This document shows positions 3,444 through 20,719 of a DNA stretch of 22,554 nucleotides, piece by piece. The position numbers and the translations under genes were made by a program. The notes beneath the pieces were generated by a model. The model was not told the DNA's origin. It was given only the letters and a program-made list of their open reading frames with translations, and searched no databases. The stretch lies in IMG/VR virus record IMGVR_UViG_3300023210_000016; one strand, given 5' to 3'. Every line of letters begins with the position of its first letter. The stretch's first letter is position 1. This DNA is from a virus (Duplodnaviria; Heunggongvirae; Uroviricota; Caudoviricetes).

Positions 3444-3805
3444 TATTCTTTACTCAGGAATTTTATATATTTAGCTGGAATTGGCTCTTGAGTGGACCAC
3501 TCCCAACTGCTGTCTCCGGTGAACGTAGGGGCCGCAGGGAAGTTGTTTGGCAATGTGATAGACAATGCTGCTAGATCGACACCTTCGCCGTACTTTTCTT
3601 CGTATTCTTCACCAAGCCAATTCATCAACGCATTGTTCATATCATCGATGGATGGGAACATGAAAATCCCATGATCGCCCATTACTTCGCTGCGGGTGCC
3701 AGATTTTGGAATAAGCCCTTGGGTCAGAATAGATTTAACATTATCATACAAGGTAACATGATAGAACGTTCGGGAAACATTATCCGTAAGTTCATGTATC
3801 TTCAC
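3443..3805 (-). CDS. Small ART-fold protein (H-x-T type, Tpt1/DarT-like NAD-binding domain) with MKIHEL leader
   Basis: FYHVT...SILTQGLIP...GIFMF...WEW...IPAKYI pattern; GTG start overlapping the upstream TGA. Confidence 0.6.
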   Translation of the reverse strand: MKIHELTDNVSRTFYHVTLYDNVKSILTQGLIPKSGTRSEVMGDHGIFMFPSIDDMNNALMNWLGEEYEEKYGEGVDLAALSITLPNNFPAAPTFTGDSSWEWSTQEPIPAKYIKFLSKE

Positions 3806-4275
3806 GCCCAGTCCTTGTCAAAGGTTTCCGTGTATTCATTCGTGACCACCAACTTAACATCAGGAGTCGGTAACTCGGTTAAACTCAGATCACATGCCTC
3901 GTAACTCAAGGTAACGTGTGGAGTATAGCTATCAAAATCCCATGATAAATCGTGGGCATCCATGCCATGTTCGTGACGTTTATTAAGCTCCGGACATTCA
4001 AAAGATAACACAAGTACGTTGTTTTCTTCTCCGAACAGTTCCAACTTATATGTACTTGGATCAATTTCCACGTTATGTTCGGCTGATTCCCAATCGAACT
4101 GTTTGTCTTTGCTGTACAGCACAGTTACGTGCATGTCGTCGGCGGGTGTCGGTTTATCGATCCCGTGCCGGTGTGTCCAGTCTTGTAGACTTTTGATGCT
4201 GTCTTCGCTAATATGTGCGCCTACAAACATTCCGGGCTTCTCTGCCCGTTCTTCTAGTAATTCTGATATCATCAT
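3802..4275 (-). CDS. acb1: Anti-CBASS nuclease Acb1 (T4 gp57B-like 2H phosphodiesterase)
   Basis: Two HxT motifs (MHVTVLYS, YTPHVTLSY), N-terminal GMFVGA, VLVL, C-terminal EY.E...DWA; colinear with T4 57B as I recall it. Confidence 0.85.
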   Translation of the reverse strand: MMISELLEERAEKPGMFVGAHISEDSIKSLQDWTHRHGIDKPTPADDMHVTVLYSKDKQFDWESAEHNVEIDPSTYKLELFGEENNVLVLSFECPELNKRHEHGMDAHDLSWDFDSYTPHVTLSYEACDLSLTELPTPDVKLVVTNEYTETFDKDWA

Positions 4276-6476: not shown

Positions 6477-6511
6477 TTGGTGTGAACAACAAGTTCACTA
6501 CAAGGAGTAAA

Positions 6512-7240
6512 ATGTCTAGAAGTAAAAAGGCAAAAGGCTTTAAATACAACAATGAGCCAGTAGTTCAACTAGATAACTACATCACTAAAAAGAAACGTGT
6601 GGACATGATCCCACGAAACATCAATCAAGAAGAGTACGTAGAATTGCTACTCGATCCAAGTAAATTAATGGTTTTTGCGGTAGGTCCAGCGGGCACTGGT
6701 AAAACGATGCTAGCCGTATTAGCAGCCATCAAAGCTTACAAAGAAGGATCGATACAACGAATCGTGCTTACAAGACCTGCAGTGGGCGTTGATGACGAGA
6801 AGCATGGATTTTTACCGGGTGACCTAAATCAGAAAATGGAACCTTGGACTAAGCCGTTGTTTGATGTCATCAACGAATACTACACCCCAAAGGATGTGGC
6901 AAACATGATCGAAAATGATATCATTGAAATTGCACCGTTAGCTATGATGCGCGGCAGAACGTTCAAGAATTGTTTCATCATTGCTGACGAAATGCAGAAC
7001 GCCACTCCAAATCAAATGAAGATGATTCTAACTCGATTAGGAGAAAATTCTGAAATGGTGATTACGGGTGATGTCAATCAAACAGATAGACAAGCGGCCC
7101 AAAATGGATTACTTGACTTTGGAAAGCTTCTTAGCAGATTCGGAGAAGCGGAATACATCGACTCAGTTGAATTTAACCGAGACGATATAGAACGTCATCC
7201 TGCTGTCAAAGAAGTGTTGGATATCTACGGCGAGGACTAG
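6512..7240 (+). CDS. phoH: PhoH-like ATPase
   Basis: GPAGTGKT Walker A, RGRTF, DEMQN, GDVNQTD, RHPAV motifs; ATG 6512 follows AAGGAG. Confidence 0.92.
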   Translation: MSRSKKAKGFKYNNEPVVQLDNYITKKKRVDMIPRNINQEEYVELLLDPSKLMVFAVGPAGTGKTMLAVLAAIKAYKEGSIQRIVLTRPAVGVDDEKHGFLPGDLNQKMEPWTKPLFDVINEYYTPKDVANMIENDIIEIAPLAMMRGRTFKNCFIIADEMQNATPNQMKMILTRLGENSEMVITGDVNQTDRQAAQNGLLDFGKLLSRFGEAEYIDSVEFNRDDIERHPAVKEVLDIYGED

Positions 7241-7938: not shown

Positions 7939-8337
7939 TCAATCCCATAAGTTCCGGTAGTACTTAGCGAACAAATCCAATCCTTCTTGAAGACGTTCGT
8001 TGTATACGTCATAGTCTGCACTGGACGGTAATGGTGCAGTATCGTCTTCTATGGTTTGTTGAAAACTCCAAATCATTTTAGCCAATGCCTGATCCCACAG
8101 TTCTGCCCCTATGTCATTGTCGTCATCTAATTCCATGAACTCGAAATGATACTGTTCATACCTATCAAAATGATCCATAAACACAGAAGGGTAACCGTTG
8201 CTCGTTGATCGTAATAACTCCAAACATGGTACTATGATTCGAGCGAACGTATCGTCAAAACTCCAGACATCCCATCGGTCAATTTGAATGAGATTTTTTC
8301 CATTCTTGCGTCCCGGCGCACTAAGGTGTATTTTCAT
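7939..8337 (-). CDS. Conserved phage hypothetical protein (D.WS.D.T.A.II ... LF.KYY..LWD family)
   Basis: Recognisable pattern DVWSFDDTFARII, KMIWSF, EGLDLFAKYYRNLWD. Confidence 0.7.
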   Translation of the reverse strand: MKIHLSAPGRKNGKNLIQIDRWDVWSFDDTFARIIVPCLELLRSTSNGYPSVFMDHFDRYEQYHFEFMELDDDNDIGAELWDQALAKMIWSFQQTIEDDTAPLPSSADYDVYNERLQEGLDLFAKYYRNLWD

Positions 8338-8932
8338 CAGTGATTATACCGTATATCTCTTCCCACTTGGTCACAACAGTCGCTGGGCCATTGTATTCGA
8401 TACTATGCCCATGTTCCATCAGAAGGCTTCTAAGGCCCATCTCGTGCCCTAGATCGGCATTCTCAACCTTGTCCTCGATCCACCATAAACCAGAATCCCT
8501 GTATTCTTCAAGCGCAGAGGTTTTCTCCGCTGCAGTATCGAGATACTTGAACTTAGTGAATGCGGTGTCACCAAACAATTTCTTCAAGTTGATTTCACGA
8601 AGGGCTTGGGCATTTGGGTCTTTGCTCAATGATGTAATCACATGAAAGACATAGCCCTGTTCCTCATGCAGTTTCTTGACATATTGGATGCTATCCCTCA
8701 ATGATGGAAGGAAACCAATAGCTGCTGATTCATTGAATACGGTGACAAGCTGTCGAATCGCCAAATCCGGCAAATTAAACCGCATAGCCATGCTGTAATG
8801 ATAATGGGCATCTTCAATCTCTTCATACCCATGATCAACCATCCAGATAGCGAAAGCGAACTCCCAATTACACATCACCCCATCACAATCGGATAAAATA
8901 ATTTTATCGGTGCTTTTGTATTTTTTGTTCAT
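8321..8932 (-). CDS. HAD-superfamily phosphatase / 5'(3')-deoxyribonucleotidase-like (T4 gp30.2-like)
   Basis: Motif I ILSDCDGV and motif IV WIEDKVEN. Confidence 0.8.
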   Translation of the reverse strand: MNKKYKSTDKIILSDCDGVMCNWEFAFAIWMVDHGYEEIEDAHYHYSMAMRFNLPDLAIRQLVTVFNESAAIGFLPSLRDSIQYVKKLHEEQGYVFHVITSLSKDPNAQALREINLKKLFGDTAFTKFKYLDTAAEKTSALEEYRDSGLWWIEDKVENADLGHEMGLRSLLMEHGHSIEYNGPATVVTKWEEIYGIITDENTP

Positions 8933-8938
8933 TTAGGT

Positions 8939-8967
8939 ATGATACACCTAATTTAGATCAATGTCAA
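8939..8967 (-). promoter_or_regulatory. Sigma70-type promoter TTGACA-N17-TATCAT (probably leaderless mRNA)
   Basis: -35 at 8967-8962, -10 at 8944-8939; ATG 7 nt downstream of the -10 box, no SD. Confidence 0.75.
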
Positions 8968-8974
8968 CTATTAT

Positions 8975-9041
8975 CATAAATACAATGTAGGTCACGAACG
9001 CGAATTCCACCTACTCTAACGTCTTGGAGGACATCAGCATG
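8975..9041 (+). promoter_or_regulatory. Conserved structured leader copy A (late box, stem-loop, SD)
   Basis: CATAAATA, GTAGGT/ACCTAC stem, GGAGG; near-identical to the reverse complement of 20087-20157. Confidence 0.8.
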
Positions 9042-9638
9042 CAATCTATTTATATACCATACACCTATCTTATTGGATGGTCATCATTGAAGGTATTTTA
9101 CTATGGAGTAAGATATGCGAAAAATTGCAATCCTTCCGATCTATGGGTAACCTATTTCACATCATCTAAATATGTTGCCGCTTTTCGTGAAATTCACGGC
9201 GAACCTGATATAATACAGATACGAAAACAATTTCCCGACAACAAAGCACGAGCGATATTATGGGAAGATAATGTAATTATGAAACTCCGATTACATAGGC
9301 GTTTCGATTTTCTTAACAAAAACCGCTCAAGGGGATTTGATTTAGATTACGCCACCATTTGCAAGAATAATAGAGCACCAGATCGATGCAAAGCGGTATC
9401 AAATGGGTTAACCGGATTGCCAAAAACAGCAGAACATAAATTAGCGTTATCTAAAGTAGTCCACCCAAGGGGATGGACCCACCGAGAAAATACCAAGAAT
9501 CTAATGTCCACCAAAGCACTCGCGTATAATCCGGGGTTCACATGTCAACATACATGCCCGTTATGTAGTAAACAAGGACAAAAGGCCAACATTGTACGAC
9601 ATCATGGATTACATGGTGAAAAATGCCGATGGTATTAG
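9039..9638 (+). CDS. Free-standing homing endonuclease (divergent GIY-YIG, Seg/Mob-like; NUMOD3-like segment and C-terminal Zn finger)
   Basis: YTYLIGW...YYGVRY...YFTSS pattern, KTAEHKLALSK, CPLC...H...C; ATG 9039 after GGAGG. Confidence 0.75.
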   Translation: MQSIYIPYTYLIGWSSLKVFYYGVRYAKNCNPSDLWVTYFTSSKYVAAFREIHGEPDIIQIRKQFPDNKARAILWEDNVIMKLRLHRRFDFLNKNRSRGFDLDYATICKNNRAPDRCKAVSNGLTGLPKTAEHKLALSKVVHPRGWTHRENTKNLMSTKALAYNPGFTCQHTCPLCSKQGQKANIVRHHGLHGEKCRWY

Positions 9639-13499: not shown

Positions 13500-13850
13500 T
13501 TAGTCTTCCTCTGCTATTTTCTTGGCAAGATCGCCATCTGATAATGTTTCACCCATTTCAAAATCTGGATCATCCAGATCAATCTCTTCACGAACAGTCG
13601 GGACGATCTCTGCTTGTGAGATATCAGCCTCTGCCTTCTGTGGAATGTGTCCATCTGTTGGTACATTCTGGTGAATTTGTGAGTAATGCTCTTTCATGAT
13701 TTCATTACGTGTCTTCACGATTTCACCATTCGGGCCGAGTTTATCACCACGAGCATTCACACCCATGTTACCCACCGCAATGGTTTCTTCGTTTTGTAGA
13801 CGAAGTTTTTCGATATCGATCATTCGTCCTTGTGCTGTTCTATGTGCCAT
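13500..13850 (-). CDS. Conserved-looking hypothetical large-phage protein
   Basis: RTAQGRMIDIEKL...AVGNMGVNARGDKLGPNG pattern; SD AAGGA. Confidence 0.75.
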   Translation of the reverse strand: MAHRTAQGRMIDIEKLRLQNEETIAVGNMGVNARGDKLGPNGEIVKTRNEIMKEHYSQIHQNVPTDGHIPQKAEADISQAEIVPTVREEIDLDDPDFEMGETLSDGDLAKKIAEED

Positions 13851-14565
13851 TTGTTTTCCTTTGTTTTGCGTTTTGTGATTTTGTCTTTCTTATTTGTCGT
13901 TTTTGTTCTTCGGTATAGGTCTTGCCCCGCATAGGGGAAGGTACTCCATACATCGGATTCTTATCTCCAAGTTTACTAGCACTTATTTGTTGTTTAGTGT
14001 GATCTGATAATACTTTTCCCGTGTTGCCTTTGCTTATTTTATTTTTGTGCTCGGTTGATAATGTTTTGCCCGTATGTGCCGCCGACATTTTCGATCTGGT
14101 TTCATTTGAAGCTTGGTACCCTCGTAAGCTATTGGCTCGCTTTTCTATTACTTCTTTAGTATGTAAATGACTAGTATCCCGCATATGACCCTTATTTGCT
14201 TCTGAAATCTTATGTTTGTGTTCTGTGGTGAGAGTAAATCCGCTACGAGAAACTTTGCCACCATTCGCCTTGCTTATTTTATTTCGGGTTTCATGCGTTA
14301 CTATTCTTCCAGAATTACCTTCTCCACCATCTGTTAAATTCCTCAATATGCCGGTACCTTGATCCTTTCTGCCGTGTTGTTCAATCAATGTCTTTTCCAG
14401 TCTAAAAGATTCTTCTTCGGTTAATCCATCTTCCACAATTATAATTCTAGTCTCGTCTATAGGTTTATGTACGGTTCTTGATGCAGACCATGCTCTGTTT
14501 CCTTTTCCTTTGCCTATATAATATGGCGTTCCATCCTCTCTGACATACTGATATACATAATACAA
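13840..14565 (-). CDS. GIY-YIG homing endonuclease with NUMOD3 repeats
   Basis: YYVYQY...PYYIGKG...R, E.LI, N.TDGGEG; several (S/T)xEH/TK.KIS.A.KG repeats; TTG start after AAGGAG. Confidence 0.85.
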   Translation of the reverse strand: MYYVYQYVREDGTPYYIGKGKGNRAWSASRTVHKPIDETRIIIVEDGLTEEESFRLEKTLIEQHGRKDQGTGILRNLTDGGEGNSGRIVTHETRNKISKANGGKVSRSGFTLTTEHKHKISEANKGHMRDTSHLHTKEVIEKRANSLRGYQASNETRSKMSAAHTGKTLSTEHKNKISKGNTGKVLSDHTKQQISASKLGDKNPMYGVPSPMRGKTYTEEQKRQIRKTKSQNAKQRKTNGT

Positions 14566-14595
14566 TGCTATTCTCCTTAATACATTGTATTTATA
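14559..14595 (-). promoter_or_regulatory. Late promoter TATAAATA plus a hairpin occluding the RBS and start codon
   Basis: TATAAATA at 14595-14588; AATACAATG/CATTGTATT 9-bp stem plus TATT/AATA, with AAGGAG in the loop. Confidence 0.8.
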
Positions 14596-14605
14596 TTCTG
14601 TACCT

Positions 14606-15133
14606 CTATCTCAAAAATTCTTTGATATCCAATCCATAAAAAAGCGAATCGATTCGATGCACGTTCATCAAATACAATACATATGATGCAACCGAACTGC
14701 CACGACCTACGCCCATGACCAGATTGCTGTCTTGTACTGTATCTACAAAGTATTTAAGGAATTGCAACAACGGAAACATATTTCTGTCTTGAAACAACAT
14801 CAACTCTTCGCCAACACGCTGTAACTCGGCATCGGTTTTACATAAGCCGATCACGTATTCAGCAATATCAAGGTCTTTGTATTCCTGTGGCATATACCAG
14901 TTGGATTGGTTGTCTGAGTCAAATGCTTCAACTGTTGCATCATCGTAGTCTTCGGTTGATTTGAGCAACAAGTGGCCATAATCGGAGTACAGTCGATTAA
15001 CTGAGTCGTTAAACAACCGAACCTCGTTCTCATCACTAATGCTCACCTCGTCCAAGAGAATGTCATTCTGATATAAACCAGACATAACGTCTTGAGTGGT
15101 GTAGTGAACTTTTCCTAGCTTGTCAAATTCCAT
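14606..15133 (-). CDS. Stand-alone DNA polymerase III alpha (DnaE)-like fragment
   Basis: RV.EEL...LL.FL...VD....GVGRGSSVASYVLYL..V.RID.L.Y.L...FL matches the DnaE GRGS region; ends before the PDID catalytic motif. Confidence 0.75.
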   Translation of the reverse strand: MEFDKLGKVHYTTQDVMSGLYQNDILLDEVSISDENEVRLFNDSVNRLYSDYGHLLLKSTEDYDDATVEAFDSDNQSNWYMPQEYKDLDIAEYVIGLCKTDAELQRVGEELMLFQDRNMFPLLQFLKYFVDTVQDSNLVMGVGRGSSVASYVLYLMNVHRIDSLFYGLDIKEFLR

Positions 15134-15141
15134 TACTAAAT

Positions 15142-15170
15142 ATTATAGTACACTATATAAGGAAATGCAA
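15142..15170 (-). promoter_or_regulatory. Sigma70-type promoter TTGCAT-N17-TATAAT (near-leaderless) containing palindrome TATAGT-AC-ACTATA
   Basis: -35 at 15170-15165, -10 at 15147-15142, ATG at 15133. Confidence 0.65.
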
Positions 15171-16225
15171 TGAAAATCTCAATTATCGGTGCGGGAAACA
15201 TAGGACTAACCATCTATGAAATGTTATCAGAGAAATCAACGAGAATGGTTCCAAGGGACACCTCTCCGTCACATGATGTACAGATAGGGGATATGAACGA
15301 TACGGATGATCGAGTACAGAAACTTGATGCAACCAAGAAATCAGAACTTAAGAAGTTCTTGAAAGGGAGTGATGCTGTGATATCAGCCGCTCCTTTTTTC
15401 TTGAATAAACTGATCATTGATGTCGCAATTGAGCTACAAATCGCATACTTTGATCTCACTGAAGACACCGATATCACACAGTACGCTAAATTGAATGCCA
15501 AGGATGCAGTTGTTATGCCCCAATGTGGTCTTGCACCCGGCGCGATAAACATCATCGCGAATGGTCTCGCAGAGCAATTCAAAGATTTATGGTCAATCAA
15601 AATGAAGGTTGGCGCTCTACCTGTGATGGCAGAGAACGAGATGAAATACTACCGTACATGGTCAACTGCTGGTGTAGTGAATGAATATTGCAACCCGTGC
15701 GATGTGATCATTGATGGCAATCCGTGCCAAATACCGGCAATGGGTAATCTGGATTCTGTGATTATCGACGGTGATTTGTACGAATCTTTCAGTACTTCTG
15801 GTGGAGTTGGAACACTTACTGAAACATATAAAGGCAAGGTTCGGCATATGTCGTATGAAACGTTACGGTATCCGGGCCATTGTGATAAGATGAAATTTCT
15901 ATTGAATGATCTGAGGTTCCGTGACAATCGAGAAGCCTTGGTAGAAATATTGGACATGCATGTTCCCACCACAAAAGATGATGTTGTCGTATTGCATGCG
16001 TCTGTGGTTGGTGGCGCACCAACTGTTCCTCATGGATATCGTCCATACACTAGAAAGATTTATGCCGAGAACGGAATGACCGCAATTCAACGGACTACCG
16101 CATCGGGAGTATGTGCAATTATTGAGTTGTTCCACAAGGGCGATTTGCCTACAGGTTTTGTTCGCCAAGAACAAGTCTCAATGGATATGTTCTTGGCTAC
16201 TAAACATGGACAAATCTTTAAGTAG
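15170..16225 (+). CDS. Saccharopine dehydrogenase / lysine 6-dehydrogenase family oxidoreductase
   Basis: IIGAGNIG, YFDLTED, PQCGLAPG, VGALP, TWS..G..NEY, TSGG.GTL, TLRYPGH, TTA.G; SD AAGGA. Confidence 0.85.
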   Translation: MKISIIGAGNIGLTIYEMLSEKSTRMVPRDTSPSHDVQIGDMNDTDDRVQKLDATKKSELKKFLKGSDAVISAAPFFLNKLIIDVAIELQIAYFDLTEDTDITQYAKLNAKDAVVMPQCGLAPGAINIIANGLAEQFKDLWSIKMKVGALPVMAENEMKYYRTWSTAGVVNEYCNPCDVIIDGNPCQIPAMGNLDSVIIDGDLYESFSTSGGVGTLTETYKGKVRHMSYETLRYPGHCDKMKFLLNDLRFRDNREALVEILDMHVPTTKDDVVVLHASVVGGAPTVPHGYRPYTRKIYAENGMTAIQRTTASGVCAIIELFHKGDLPTGFVRQEQVSMDMFLATKHGQIFK

Positions 16226-17102: not shown

Positions 17103-17413
17103 TAGAATGCTCCAAGTTTGGTGCTGCCCCCAGCTTTATCGGAATACACGTGAGTGATATATCCATCCATTGGGGTCTCTTTAAGCGTGGCCATGAACTC
17201 GTCTAGTTCATCCTTGTTTGCATTATCCCACAGGAATTGCCAAACTGGTTCCAGTGCCTGATGCTTTTTCTCATTAGCTGCCATCGAGATAAACCCACCA
17301 AATCGGGCCATCCCAAGATGTTTGTACATTGCAGATTGTGTCACCCTGTGAATGAAAATATGCTTGTTGTGGTCTTCGATGGTGTCGGCTTCAAATAACA
17401 ATCGTAGTTTCAT
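17102..17413 (-). CDS. Hypothetical protein with MKLRLLFE leader
   Basis: 103-aa ORF coupled by TAATG on both sides. Confidence 0.7.
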   Translation of the reverse strand: MKLRLLFEADTIEDHNKHIFIHRVTQSAMYKHLGMARFGGFISMAANEKKHQALEPVWQFLWDNANKDELDEFMATLKETPMDGYITHVYSDKAGGSTKLGAF

Positions 17414-17826
17414 TAGATGTCTCCTTCTTCTCTTTCTTCGCTACGTGATGCATCAAACTCACCACCGGGATAGCGTGATTCAAGTTTGTCCACATTAGCT
17501 GTGATGATTTCATTAGGATCGACATTCAATGCCCGACACGCTTGTGCCCAATACCAAATAACATCACCTAGTTCTTTCTTGAGATGAACAATAGTTTCTT
17601 CATCGTACTCTTTGCCTTGAAAGACAATCTTCTTGATGATCTCCGCAAATTCACCAGCTTCTCCAGCCATGCCAATACCGGCGGTCAGAATTCGGGCACA
17701 ATCCATTTCGGATGCTTTGTACAATGTTTCCAAGCGGGTGATTAGAGAGTAAGTATCGCTCGACTCTTCGCTGGTCACGCCTTCGACAAAATGTACGTAT
17801 TTTCTTAAATCTACTTCGGTGGTCAT
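17413..17826 (-). CDS. mazG: MazG-like NTP pyrophosphohydrolase
   Basis: GMAGEAGEFAEIIKK, KELGDVIWY, NV.KL.SRYPGG; SD GAGGA. Confidence 0.9.
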   Translation of the reverse strand: MTTEVDLRKYVHFVEGVTSEESSDTYSLITRLETLYKASEMDCARILTAGIGMAGEAGEFAEIIKKIVFQGKEYDEETIVHLKKELGDVIWYWAQACRALNVDPNEIITANVDKLESRYPGGEFDASRSEEREEGDI

Positions 17827-19444: not shown

Positions 19445-20089
19445 TTAGGTATCTCCATTCTTGTAGTTATTTATACAAACATCACGATGTCTCATGAAGT
19501 TTGCGCCGACATCTGCGAATTCTCGCGCACAGATATCGCATGTTAGTTTTGGTTTGTTTTTAAGTGTTTCGCTGATAAGTTTGCGTCTATGTGTTGGTAC
19601 ATTTTTTCCGCGCAGGGACAGGGATAAATTGTTGCGATGCTCGAAAGATTTGATCATTCCGGTTCTAGTTTCGCTCATTTTTGTTCTGGTCTCAACGGTA
19701 TGCGCGATGCCCATGTGCGAATCGGATAACTTATTGCAGTGTCCATCAGACATTTTTATTCCTTTGTTCCATGGCGATAATCCCATTGTACCTTCCCCGC
19801 CATAGGTCATATTATATCCTCCGTCAGTTGAATAATGGGTACCATACTGTTCTATGAAATATTTCTCCATAACATGCAAGGTATGATCAAGATGATTGCT
19901 CTGATATATGGCTTCAATTGTAAAATTCTCAATCCCGTGCTTTCTCATTGCGTTATATAGATAGTATGACGATTTTCTTGCTTTTGCCTTATGCATTCTG
20001 AAACGATGTTCAATTGATTTGCTTGTAAAACCTACGTACATTTTATCATTGATTTGGTTGGTGATTTTGTATATGCTATAAATATTCAT
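19445..20089 (-). CDS. GIY-YIG homing endonuclease with NUMOD3 repeats and C-terminal Zn finger
   Basis: IYSIYKITN...MYVGFT...RF..H, E.YFI, GYNMT.GGEG, PWNKG, NUMOD3-like repeats, CDIC. Confidence 0.88.
   Translation of the reverse strand: MNIYSIYKITNQINDKMYVGFTSKSIEHRFRMHKAKARKSSYYLYNAMRKHGIENFTIEAIYQSNHLDHTLHVMEKYFIEQYGTHYSTDGGYNMTYGGEGTMGLSPWNKGIKMSDGHCNKLSDSHMGIAHTVETRTKMSETRTGMIKSFEHRNNLSLSLRGKNVPTHRRKLISETLKNKPKLTCDICAREFADVGANFMRHRDVCINNYKNGDT
19468..19475 (-). promoter_or_regulatory. Perfect T4 late promoter TATAAATA inside the 3' end of the endonuclease gene
   Basis: Exact consensus, followed by GGAG and ATG 19442. Confidence 0.7.
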
Positions 20090-20157
20090 GCTGATTGTCC
20101 TCCCAGACGTTAGATTAGGTGGATGCTAGTAACATCGCGACCTACCTTGTATTTATG
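20087..20157 (-). promoter_or_regulatory. Conserved structured leader copy B (late box, stem-loop, SD)
   Basis: Reverse complement reads CATAAATACAAGGTAGGTCGCGATGTTACTAGCATCCACCTAATCTAACGTCTGGGAGGACAATCAGCATG; matches 8975-9041. Confidence 0.8.
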
Positions 20158-20719
20158 CTGCTTTTTCGATGTTTATAAGTTTGACAGGCCCCTGAACTGT
20201 GATTTCTCGTTCTTCGGAAAATTCTGGATTTGAATTTTGTATCAAGGTTTCTTGCCAATCGATATTACGAACATCTACTGTTGCAGAGAACAACCACCTA
20301 ACATCGCCTTGTTTCTTGTTACCCCAATGCGGTGTTGCTGAAGATTTCGACCAAGCCCAATATCGATCACCCTGAAGTGATGGTTTTTTGTTTTCCGGAG
20401 CATATATCGCTCTCCATATTGGGATTCTGGTGCCTTGCATTTGGGACGTTATAGTACTGATTGATCTATCGATTTCGTACATCAAATCATTTTTAAGCCA
20501 TGCAACGAAATCATCATCATAACGTACAAGTTCGGAAAATCGAAGGGCATCATATGGCGTGTTTCCGGTTTCGCGTTGATATGTTCTGGTCAATTCCCGC
20601 CAGATCAAAGTGTCTGGAGCACTTGTGATATCTCGGAAAATCGATTCGATGACTTCATCTTTGTCTATATCGGAAAGAAACGATTGTTGCTGATTTTCAA
20701 GAAGTTCAGATATAAGCAT
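20153..20719 (-). CDS. Putative R-S-E clade ADP-ribosyltransferase with MLISELLE leader
   Basis: IWRAI (R), YWAWSKSSA (S motif), EEREITV (ExE). Confidence 0.55.
   Translation of the reverse strand: MLISELLENQQQSFLSDIDKDEVIESIFRDITSAPDTLIWRELTRTYQRETGNTPYDALRFSELVRYDDDFVAWLKNDLMYEIDRSISTITSQMQGTRIPIWRAIYAPENKKPSLQGDRYWAWSKSSATPHWGNKKQGDVRWLFSATVDVRNIDWQETLIQNSNPEFSEEREITVQGPVKLINIEKAA

Follow-up and report, generated by a model that had tools for sequence, protein, structure and literature searches.

A covarying, probably bidirectional cassette at the 5′ end of phage homing endonuclease genes, with a predicted cis-antisense RNA across the ribosome site

Introduction

No selfish elements are commoner in large phages than homing endonuclease genes. 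To our knowledge, control of the harm that they do to their carriers has been described in a few T-even cases only, all of which involve hairpins of the sense strand. Antisense RNAs, which typically have bulged stems, control transposases by forming a duplex with the target; in IS10/Tn10, RNA-OUT acts on RNA-IN, and the transposase is thereby under cis-antisense control. T4-type phages also harbour mobile regulatory cassettes, the PeSLs (promoter-early plus stem-loop).

The closest descriptions come from leaders of phage endonuclease genes. In the T-even phages, I-TevI, I-TevII, I-TevIII and segB, as well as mobE of Aeh1, have leader hairpins that sequester the ribosome-binding site and in which late promoters are embedded (PMC2988022). 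The review of T4 mobile elements describes sense hairpins with late promoters, autorepression and processing by RNase E, and no antisense RNA module (PMC2988022). From metagenomic 'fractured genes', hairpins, the sequence TATAAATA and two complementary MEME motifs were reported in the 5′ UTRs of free-standing endonuclease genes of several families; 15 of the 16 loci had both TATAAATA and a conserved hairpin ahead of the start codon (Dassa et al., 2009; PMC2677866). There, the element was read as a translational hairpin of the sense strand, and no covariance model, strand test or antisense RNA was put forward (Dassa et al., 2009). Lastly, CfrI, an antisense RNA of about 225 nt from the cyanophage S-PM2, overlaps a homing endonuclease gene and psbA (Millard et al., 2010, as described in PMC2984593).

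Here, we analyzed a 22,554-nt stretch of DNA from an uncultured tailed phage (IMG/VR record IMGVR_UViG_3300023210_000016), hereafter the window, together with the relatives of a leader that occurs twice in it. A structured leader of about 70 nt, shared by two dissimilar endonuclease genes, had been predicted from the letters of the window. We describe the family to which it belongs, and show that its conserved helices are selected on the strand opposite the gene.

Results

Two copies of the leader in the window

Both copies of the leader are present where the original prediction had placed them, copy A at 8975–9041 on the plus strand and copy B at 20087–20157 on the minus strand (Table 1). They are near-identical except for a variable inner loop, and a 19-mer common to both, TCTAACGTCTNGGAGGACA, occurs exactly twice in the window and in none of 100 shuffles. 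The predicted outer stem, GUAGGU/ACCUA(C), is real and matches a helix that covaries across the family described below; the inner stems differ between the copies, as had been noticed (GAA/UUC and GAUGU/GCAUC), and form part of a helix that covaries family-wide. Hairpin 1 of copy A consists of a 6-bp outer stem, two single bulges around an R-Y pair and an inner stem, and the minus-strand loop of its hairpin 2 is complementary to the Shine-Dalgarno sequence (SD; GGAGG, 9026–9030). Covariance model R3 matches copy A at 8977–9041 on the minus strand (57.1 bits, E = 2.7e-14) and copy B at 20087–20155 on the plus strand (45.8 bits, E = 1.2e-10). The sense box of copy B contains the TAA stop codon (20153–20155) of the upstream gene (20153–20719, minus strand), which leaves no gap between that gene and the cassette.

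The proteins encoded downstream are indeed dissimilar in their catalytic halves: BLASTP returned only a 72-aa C-terminal match (E = 0.003), and protein A has just a weak match to a homing endonuclease PHROG while protein B has GIY-YIG and NUMOD3 domains. A third endonuclease gene of the window (13840–14565, minus strand) had been said to keep the ends of the leader and to lack the part between them, and this holds. It has TATAAATACAATGTA, followed by an SD and a TTG start codon, and neither the hairpins nor an antisense box were found; its covariance-model score reaches only E = 3.8. We take it for a relative that lacks the module, or else for a derivative that arose by deletion. Its product carries NUMOD3 three times, its promoter region is identical to that of copy A over 14 nt, and a 175-aa DnaE-like ORF (14606–15133, minus strand) lies directly upstream.

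The window phage is of the jumbo type, with a clamp loader 46% identical to that of PA5oct. Elsewhere in the window, a saccharopine-dehydrogenase-like gene with both Pfam domains (15170–16225, plus strand) lies in the replication-gene region, its neighbours being on the other strand. Genes for a tRNA nucleotidyltransferase of the CCA-adding type (769–2049, minus), an RNA ligase-like protein (3802–4275, minus), PhoH (6482–7240, plus) and MazG (17413–17826, minus) make up a set for RNA repair and nucleotide housekeeping that is typical of large phages. A near-consensus σ70-type promoter (8939–8967, minus strand; TTGACA, 17 nt, TATCAT; 11 of 12 matches) is located between the predicted end of the antisense RNA of copy A and a minus-strand gene (8321–8932).

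Table 1. Features of the two cassette copies and of the third endonuclease gene in the window
Feature	Position	Strand	Basis or remark
Copy A, sense late-promoter-like box CATAAATA	8975–8982	+	core TAAATA at 8977–8982
Copy A, hairpin 1, terminator-like (H1′ on the minus strand)	8987–9014	−	fold, covariance, U-tract rule
Copy A, hairpin 2 region, 8-bp minus-strand helix CUGAUGUC/GACGUUAG	9016–9037	−	fold and pairing of helix 1
Copy A, perfect TATAAATA box, candidate antisense promoter, in codons 3–6 of the endonuclease gene	9047–9054	−	
Copy A, predicted cis-antisense RNA	8975–9041	−	putative start near 9041 (±2), from T4 spacing
Homing endonuclease gene A, 199 aa, PYTYLIGW SegE-like N-terminus	9039–9638	+	
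Copy B, sense late-promoter-like box CATAAATA	20150–20157	−	
Copy B, hairpin 1 (H1′ on the plus strand)	20115–20145	+	fold, covariance, U-tract rule
Copy B, hairpin 2 region (H2′ on the plus strand, one bulge)	20091–20113	+	SD at 20098–20104
Copy B, perfect TATAAATA box, candidate antisense promoter, in codons 2–5 of endonuclease gene B	20077–20084	+	
Copy B, predicted cis-antisense RNA	20087–20155	+	putative start near 20090, from T4 spacing; both ends predicted
Homing endonuclease gene B, 214 aa, GIY-YIG and NUMOD3	19445–20089	−	
Third endonuclease gene, bare TATAAATA box (14588–14595), SD, TTG start	14563–14595	−	

A large family in phage metagenomes

A first exact-pattern scan of IMG/VR, which included the 3′ box, gave seven distinct relatives, with both GIY-YIG and HNH ORFs and with compensatory stems (GTAGGT/ACCTAC, GTAGTT/AACTAC and GTGACT/AGTCAC). 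With a structure-agnostic pattern, composed of the promoter box, the bulge signature and the linker, at least 120 IMG/VR loci were found to carry the cassette, with at least 125 distinct sequences. Covariance models, built and searched against phage metagenomes, recovered homologues whose helices covary strongly: 115–116 copies in 100 loci, some of which were missed by the pattern. Five large phage records hold 39 covariance-model matches, and single records hold as many as 9 (a complete 329-kb genome), 13 (a complete 360-kb genome) or 12 (a 142-kb fragment). In a complete 329-kb phage genome, two divergently oriented copies lie about 270 bp apart (L022, 1552–1634, minus, and 1907–1987, plus), both in front of GIY-YIG genes; the second has a diverged 3′ box and compensated stems (GCAGUU/AACUGC).

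Rhizobium phage RHph_I1_18 was the sole carrier found among 50,697 deposited phage genomes. Its single copy (MN988519.1, 80291–80362; L182, 1500–1580) lies upstream of EVB91_137, a gene annotated as hypothetical, which has a TTG start and the same PYTYLIGW SegE-like N-terminus as ORF A of the window. In blastn searches of the 81–91-nt leader against the 50,697 phage records, the window and L008 queries gave chance matches only, and a typical member of the family as query gave one real match, to RHph_I1_18; 900-bp regions searched against phage records by blastn found nothing. The module was not found in PA5oct, Atu_ph07, RaK2, XacN1 or SCTP-2, which are the nearest jumbo relatives in culture, or in the cyanophages S-PM2 and P-SSM4. 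For S-PM2 (NC_006820) and P-SSM4, model R3 returned nothing at E ≤ 1, and CfrI is therefore unrelated as judged by model search. Contigs of prokaryote genomes gave 35 pattern matches, with 16 loci confirmed by model R3; all 16 are on contigs of metagenome-assembled genomes (MAGs) and none on isolate chromosomes. Of metatranscriptome runs, only one, from a marine sample, contained a small part of the sampled words, a fraction of 0.11.

No described family in Rfam matches the leader: Rfam 15 gave no match at E ≤ 1 on either strand of the whole window, and, for nine other module-bearing loci, only a chance U6 match outside the module. A literature string search for the conserved boxes returned unrelated primers only, and endonuclease-associated motifs are not mentioned by Weinberg et al. 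(2017). Judged by these searches, the cassette is a large, widespread and undescribed family of about 80 bases that has no Rfam entry.

Anatomy of the sense strand

On the strand of the gene, the cassette reads, in order, a NNTAAATA box, a spacer of 3–5 nt (in all parsed copies), hairpin 1, the linker CUCUA, hairpin 2, YCAGC and the start codon. Across the family, hairpin 1 has a 6-bp outer stem, a bulged C, an R-Y pair, another bulged C and an inner stem of at most 5 bp. Hairpin 2 has a covarying core (GCU/AGC, AGUU/AACU, CAUU/AAUG, GUC/GAC and others) made of three covarying pairs and two that are often mismatched (C·A in 78 of 116 copies); it is only 3–5 bp long, and the SD falls mostly within its 7-nt loop. 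In the sense model, 16 of the 17 pairs show double changes and the covariation score is 0.608, as against at most 0.076 with slid partners.

By T4 spacing, late transcription would start at about the first base of hairpin 1, as originally proposed, and the spacer is 5 nt in 75 of 107 copies. Boxes of the TAAATA type also occur upstream of a virion structural gene in the window, consistent with their use as late promoters; from T4 biology and this position before a virion gene, we infer that these uncultured phages use TAAATA as their late promoter. Since TAAATA lies upstream of hairpin 1, both hairpins are downstream of the putative sense start, and no late promoter was found within or after the 5′ arm, where the T-even leaders have it. 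Neither was a stable sense hairpin that would sequester the SD: the predicted folding energies of the sense leaders in the window are ordinary (z about 0).

The UCCACC segment had been suggested to pair alternatively with the SD, as the basis of a translational switch. Over 107 members, however, the longest complementary stretch does not exceed what shuffled arms give, and the stem/SD switch of the sense strand was rejected, the alternative pairing not being conserved across the 107 copies.

The conserved helices are selected on the strand opposite the gene

In alignments fitted to the covariance models, from which all pairing and covariation counts were taken, non-Watson-Crick cells of the sense strand comprise 191 A·C or C·A against 39 G·U or U·G, or 142 A·C against 11 G·U when the loop-closing pair is left out. 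An A·C or C·A cell is a wobble pair only when read on the opposite strand; A·C being far commoner than G·U, these cells pair only on the opposite strand. A model of the reverse strand has 20 pairs, 97.1% of them paired, and the sense model 17 pairs, 89.0% paired. Double changes are seen in 16 of the 20 antisense pairs, and the covariation score is 0.59–0.61 in both models, against at most 0.10 for slid controls and 0.19–0.22 for shuffles, none of 500 of which reached it.

The antisense strand folds into two hairpins. The one opposite hairpin 1 (H1′) has 12 pairs, 95.9% paired, 11 of them with double changes. The other, antisense helix 1 (H2′), has 8 pairs, 98.8% paired, with conserved G·U. Two invariant boxes of the sense strand that appear single-stranded there, CUAAC and AUCAG, are the two arms of this 8-bp helix, which is held by conserved G·U pairs (GU in 112 and AU in 3 copies at one position; UG in 77 and CG in 32 at another). 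The mean minimum free energy (MFE) is −17.4 for the antisense strand and −12.3 for the sense strand, 5.1 kcal/mol lower for the antisense, which is the more stable in 101 of 107 copies (p = 9e-19). In two typical members, z ranges from −2.1 to −2.2 for the antisense and from −0.2 to −0.6 for the sense strand; for the antisense strand of the window copies, z is −0.98 in copy A and +0.59 in copy B, the latter being a weak fold.

These results show that the conserved helices are selected on the strand opposite the gene. The wobble asymmetry, the pairing and the energies thus speak against a translational switch of the sense strand, as was originally favoured. The alternative offered along with it, an endonuclease-associated non-coding RNA, comes closer to the evidence, but the RNA would be on the other strand.

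A promoter-like box in the first codons and a U-rich tail

In 87 of 107 copies, TATTTA, which is TAAATA on the opposite strand, is found 3–8 nt downstream of the start codon. All three reading frames are represented, with N-termini of the types MxIY, MYL and MIFI/MLF, and even within a single HNH family ('NKYT') the box gives MYLxNKYT, MIFIxNKYT and MSIYLSNKY. Its distance to the CAGC box and the helix is 4–6 nt in 86 of the 87 copies, regardless of the offset from the ATG. The three frames and the fixed spacing indicate that TATTTA is part of the cassette at the level of nucleotides and not a coding feature. TATTTA after an ATG could partly come from I-Y codons in AT-rich genomes; its presence in three frames argues against this. 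The remaining 20 of the 107 copies have no exact TATTTA, and have TACTTA or TATATA instead. The octamers of the antisense box resemble the sense ones, and are perfect in both window copies. By T4 spacing, antisense transcription would begin one base before the first helix. As in control of the RNA-OUT type, the cassette has an outward-facing promoter box inside the 5′ end of the gene, as far as sequence can tell, and selected stem-loops on the antisense strand.

By the U-tract rule, the second antisense hairpin has a U-rich tail in 104 of 107 copies, and the sense hairpin in none of 107. This tail is the complement of the sense promoter and of the A-rich spacer; these bases would serve both strands, and the tail is therefore not independent evidence. 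A simple terminator scan made no call for the window copies, which the bulged stems probably explain. The antisense RNA of copy A would end within the U-rich tail, near 8975.

The cassette precedes unrelated nuclease genes

Among 104 complete downstream ORFs, NUMOD3 was found in 46, four HNH models matched 13, 10, 4 and 2, and GIY-YIG, SegE_GIY-YIG and a TnsA-like endonuclease were found in 7, 4 and 3, respectively. By N-terminal similarity, a large GIY-like cluster and two HNH clusters were distinguished, the other ORFs being singletons, among them remnants with NUMOD3 only. Every parsed copy, those of whole genomes included, precedes a nuclease gene or a nuclease remnant, and subclasses of the module, as defined by hairpin sequence, are common to different nuclease families. 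The leader is thus independent of the ORF, as had been supposed from two genes: it stands before GIY-YIG, two types of HNH, TnsA-like and NUMOD3-only genes. The view of it as a portable cassette also holds, in that it is conserved and covarying in front of unrelated families of homing endonucleases.

Some copies precede truncated ORFs of 30–83 aa or no ORF (L110, L087), so that the cassette outlives decayed endonuclease genes. The stop codon of a long upstream ORF lies within the sense promoter in 11 of 116 copies, copy B of the window among them; that the promoter doubles as an upstream stop codon was accordingly rejected as a general rule.

Discussion

We propose, with a probability that we put at about 60%, that the element is a portable sense/antisense module which encodes a cis-antisense RNA of about 65 nt over the ribosome site of the endonuclease gene. 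The proposal builds on the family and its covariation, on the strand of the fold and on the promoter-like and terminator-like boxes; production of the RNA, its start and end, and repression of the nuclease are what it predicts. A bidirectional cassette of about 80 bp would travel at the 5′ end of phage homing endonuclease genes, supplying on the gene strand a T4-type late promoter box, a 5′ UTR, an SD and a start codon and, on the opposite strand, a TAAATA late-promoter box, situated in the first codons of the ORF and directed back over the leader. Transcription from this second box would yield an RNA of about 65 nt that begins one base ahead of the 8-bp hairpin, with its SD-complementary loop of 7 nt, runs on through the 12-bp bulged hairpin and ends in the U-rich tail. 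It would be made late, as would the endonuclease mRNA, and be fully complementary to the 5′ UTR of the latter. Its first loop would meet the SD in the loop of the sense hairpin, a plausible first contact of the loop-loop kind, and the duplex over the SD would most likely restrain translation of the nuclease, possibly with cleavage by RNase III.

The same helices could instead belong to a structured leader of the sense strand, in which a stabilising 5′-terminal hairpin is followed by one that presents the SD, or which serves as a binding site for a phage or host regulator, the features of the opposite strand being by-products. The T4-spaced start on the first base of hairpin 1 would suit such a leader, 89% of the cells still pair on the sense strand, the T-even endonuclease genes are under the control of leader hairpins (PMC2988022) and similar hairpins were read in this way by Dassa et al. 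(PMC2677866). However, G·U cells that pair on the sense strand only are nearly absent while the A·C cells that break its helices are common, and fixed at three positions; the SD hairpin has 3–5 bp, with the SD in its loop and an MFE z of about 0; the alternative pairing of stem and SD is not conserved; and the conserved TATTTA box in three frames is left unexplained. We therefore regard a sense-strand leader as unlikely. A timing mask in the style of T4, in which AUAAAUA of read-through transcripts pairs with UAUUUAU just behind the AUG and so shuts off the initiation region, whereas late transcripts, devoid of the 5′ arm, are translated, would follow the logic of I-TevI, segB and mobE of Aeh1, and the inverted repeat TAAATA/TATTTA does flank the leader in 87 of 107 copies. 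Yet the helix would consist of just 6–7 A-U pairs closing a multiloop of 60 nt, there is no covariation at the flanks of the repeat (50 against 47.3 expected, and 18 against 14.2), and the antisense-specific wobble pattern of the two hairpins has no place in it, all of which makes it very unlikely.

Two other explanations do without a regulatory small RNA or without RNA altogether. The bulged hairpin and U tail could be an insulator of the antisense strand that merely stops opposite-strand transcription at the edge of the endonuclease gene; the U-tract rule holds in 104 of 107 copies and on that strand only, and in copy A the σ70-like promoter for the next minus-strand gene (8967–8939) follows immediately. 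This reading is quite unlikely, as it explains neither the conserved first hairpin with its SD-matching loop, nor the promoter-like box at fixed spacing, nor the restriction of the module to endonuclease genes. An element that acts as DNA, be it a recombination or homing boundary or a single-stranded DNA hairpin that serves the mobility of the endonuclease gene, would agree with the many copies per genome, with the position at the edge of a mobile gene and with the same module subclasses on different ORFs. We find it highly improbable, though, for the stems vary freely in sequence and yet covary, unlike what selection for identity of the DNA would produce, and the strand-specific G·U pattern, the promoter box and the U tail fit an RNA.

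If the sense/antisense module is real, the cassette would be indifferent to the ORF that it serves, would bring its own antisense brake and would need only the late transcription machinery of the phage, which would account for the invasion of many uncultured jumbo and T4-like phages by very different endonuclease genes, and for the persistence of these genes there. The conserved N-termini MxIY, MYL and MIFI would then be by-products of a promoter on the other strand. It would also be a large RNA family with clear covariation that is missing from Rfam, and, with a carrier in culture (RHph_I1_18), the idea is directly testable. A more doubtful extension is that the cassette, rather than any single nuclease, is the conserved unit, an adaptor made of promoter, antisense brake and start codon that is fused to ORFs in any frame, and that the near-identical RNAs of the 9–13 copies in a jumbo genome act in trans, as a shared silencing network. 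Such a network, if it existed, would determine the endonuclease load as a whole, and related endonuclease genes brought in by co-infecting phages could be silenced too.

Among known systems, the PeSLs resemble the module in being short, repeated cassettes of promoter and hairpin that are tied to gene shuffling, but they have early promoters and flank diverse small ORFs, whereas the module has a late box on each strand and occurs only with endonuclease genes. The T-even leaders share with it a late promoter directly upstream of an endonuclease gene and RNA structure at the initiation region, and the same purpose, to limit a toxic nuclease, would apply. In the module, however, the promoter is upstream of both hairpins, so that late transcripts would keep them; its SD lies in the loop of a sense stem of 3–5 bp, and its helices are optimised for the opposite strand. 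As in the account of Dassa et al., a hairpin and TATAAATA occur upstream of free-standing endonuclease genes of several families in environmental phage DNA; compared by description, the element of that account is probably the same module or a related one. CfrI, as described in PMC2984593, was detected experimentally as an antisense RNA to a homing endonuclease gene of a T4-like phage, and differs from the module in size and layout.

In its design, the module resembles RNA-OUT of IS10. There too, an outward promoter is located just inside the 5′ end of the gene of a mobile element, and a short, stable RNA of about 65–70 nt with a bulged stem-loop is complementary to the 5′ end of the mRNA and its ribosome site. 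The module differs in that it belongs to phage homing endonuclease genes, in that both promoters are T4-type late boxes, and in its two hairpins and an antisense tail that is complementary to the sense promoter; its expression and repression are predicted only, and the two have no sequence relation. The module most likely works in the manner of IS10 RNA-OUT, while being unrelated to it.
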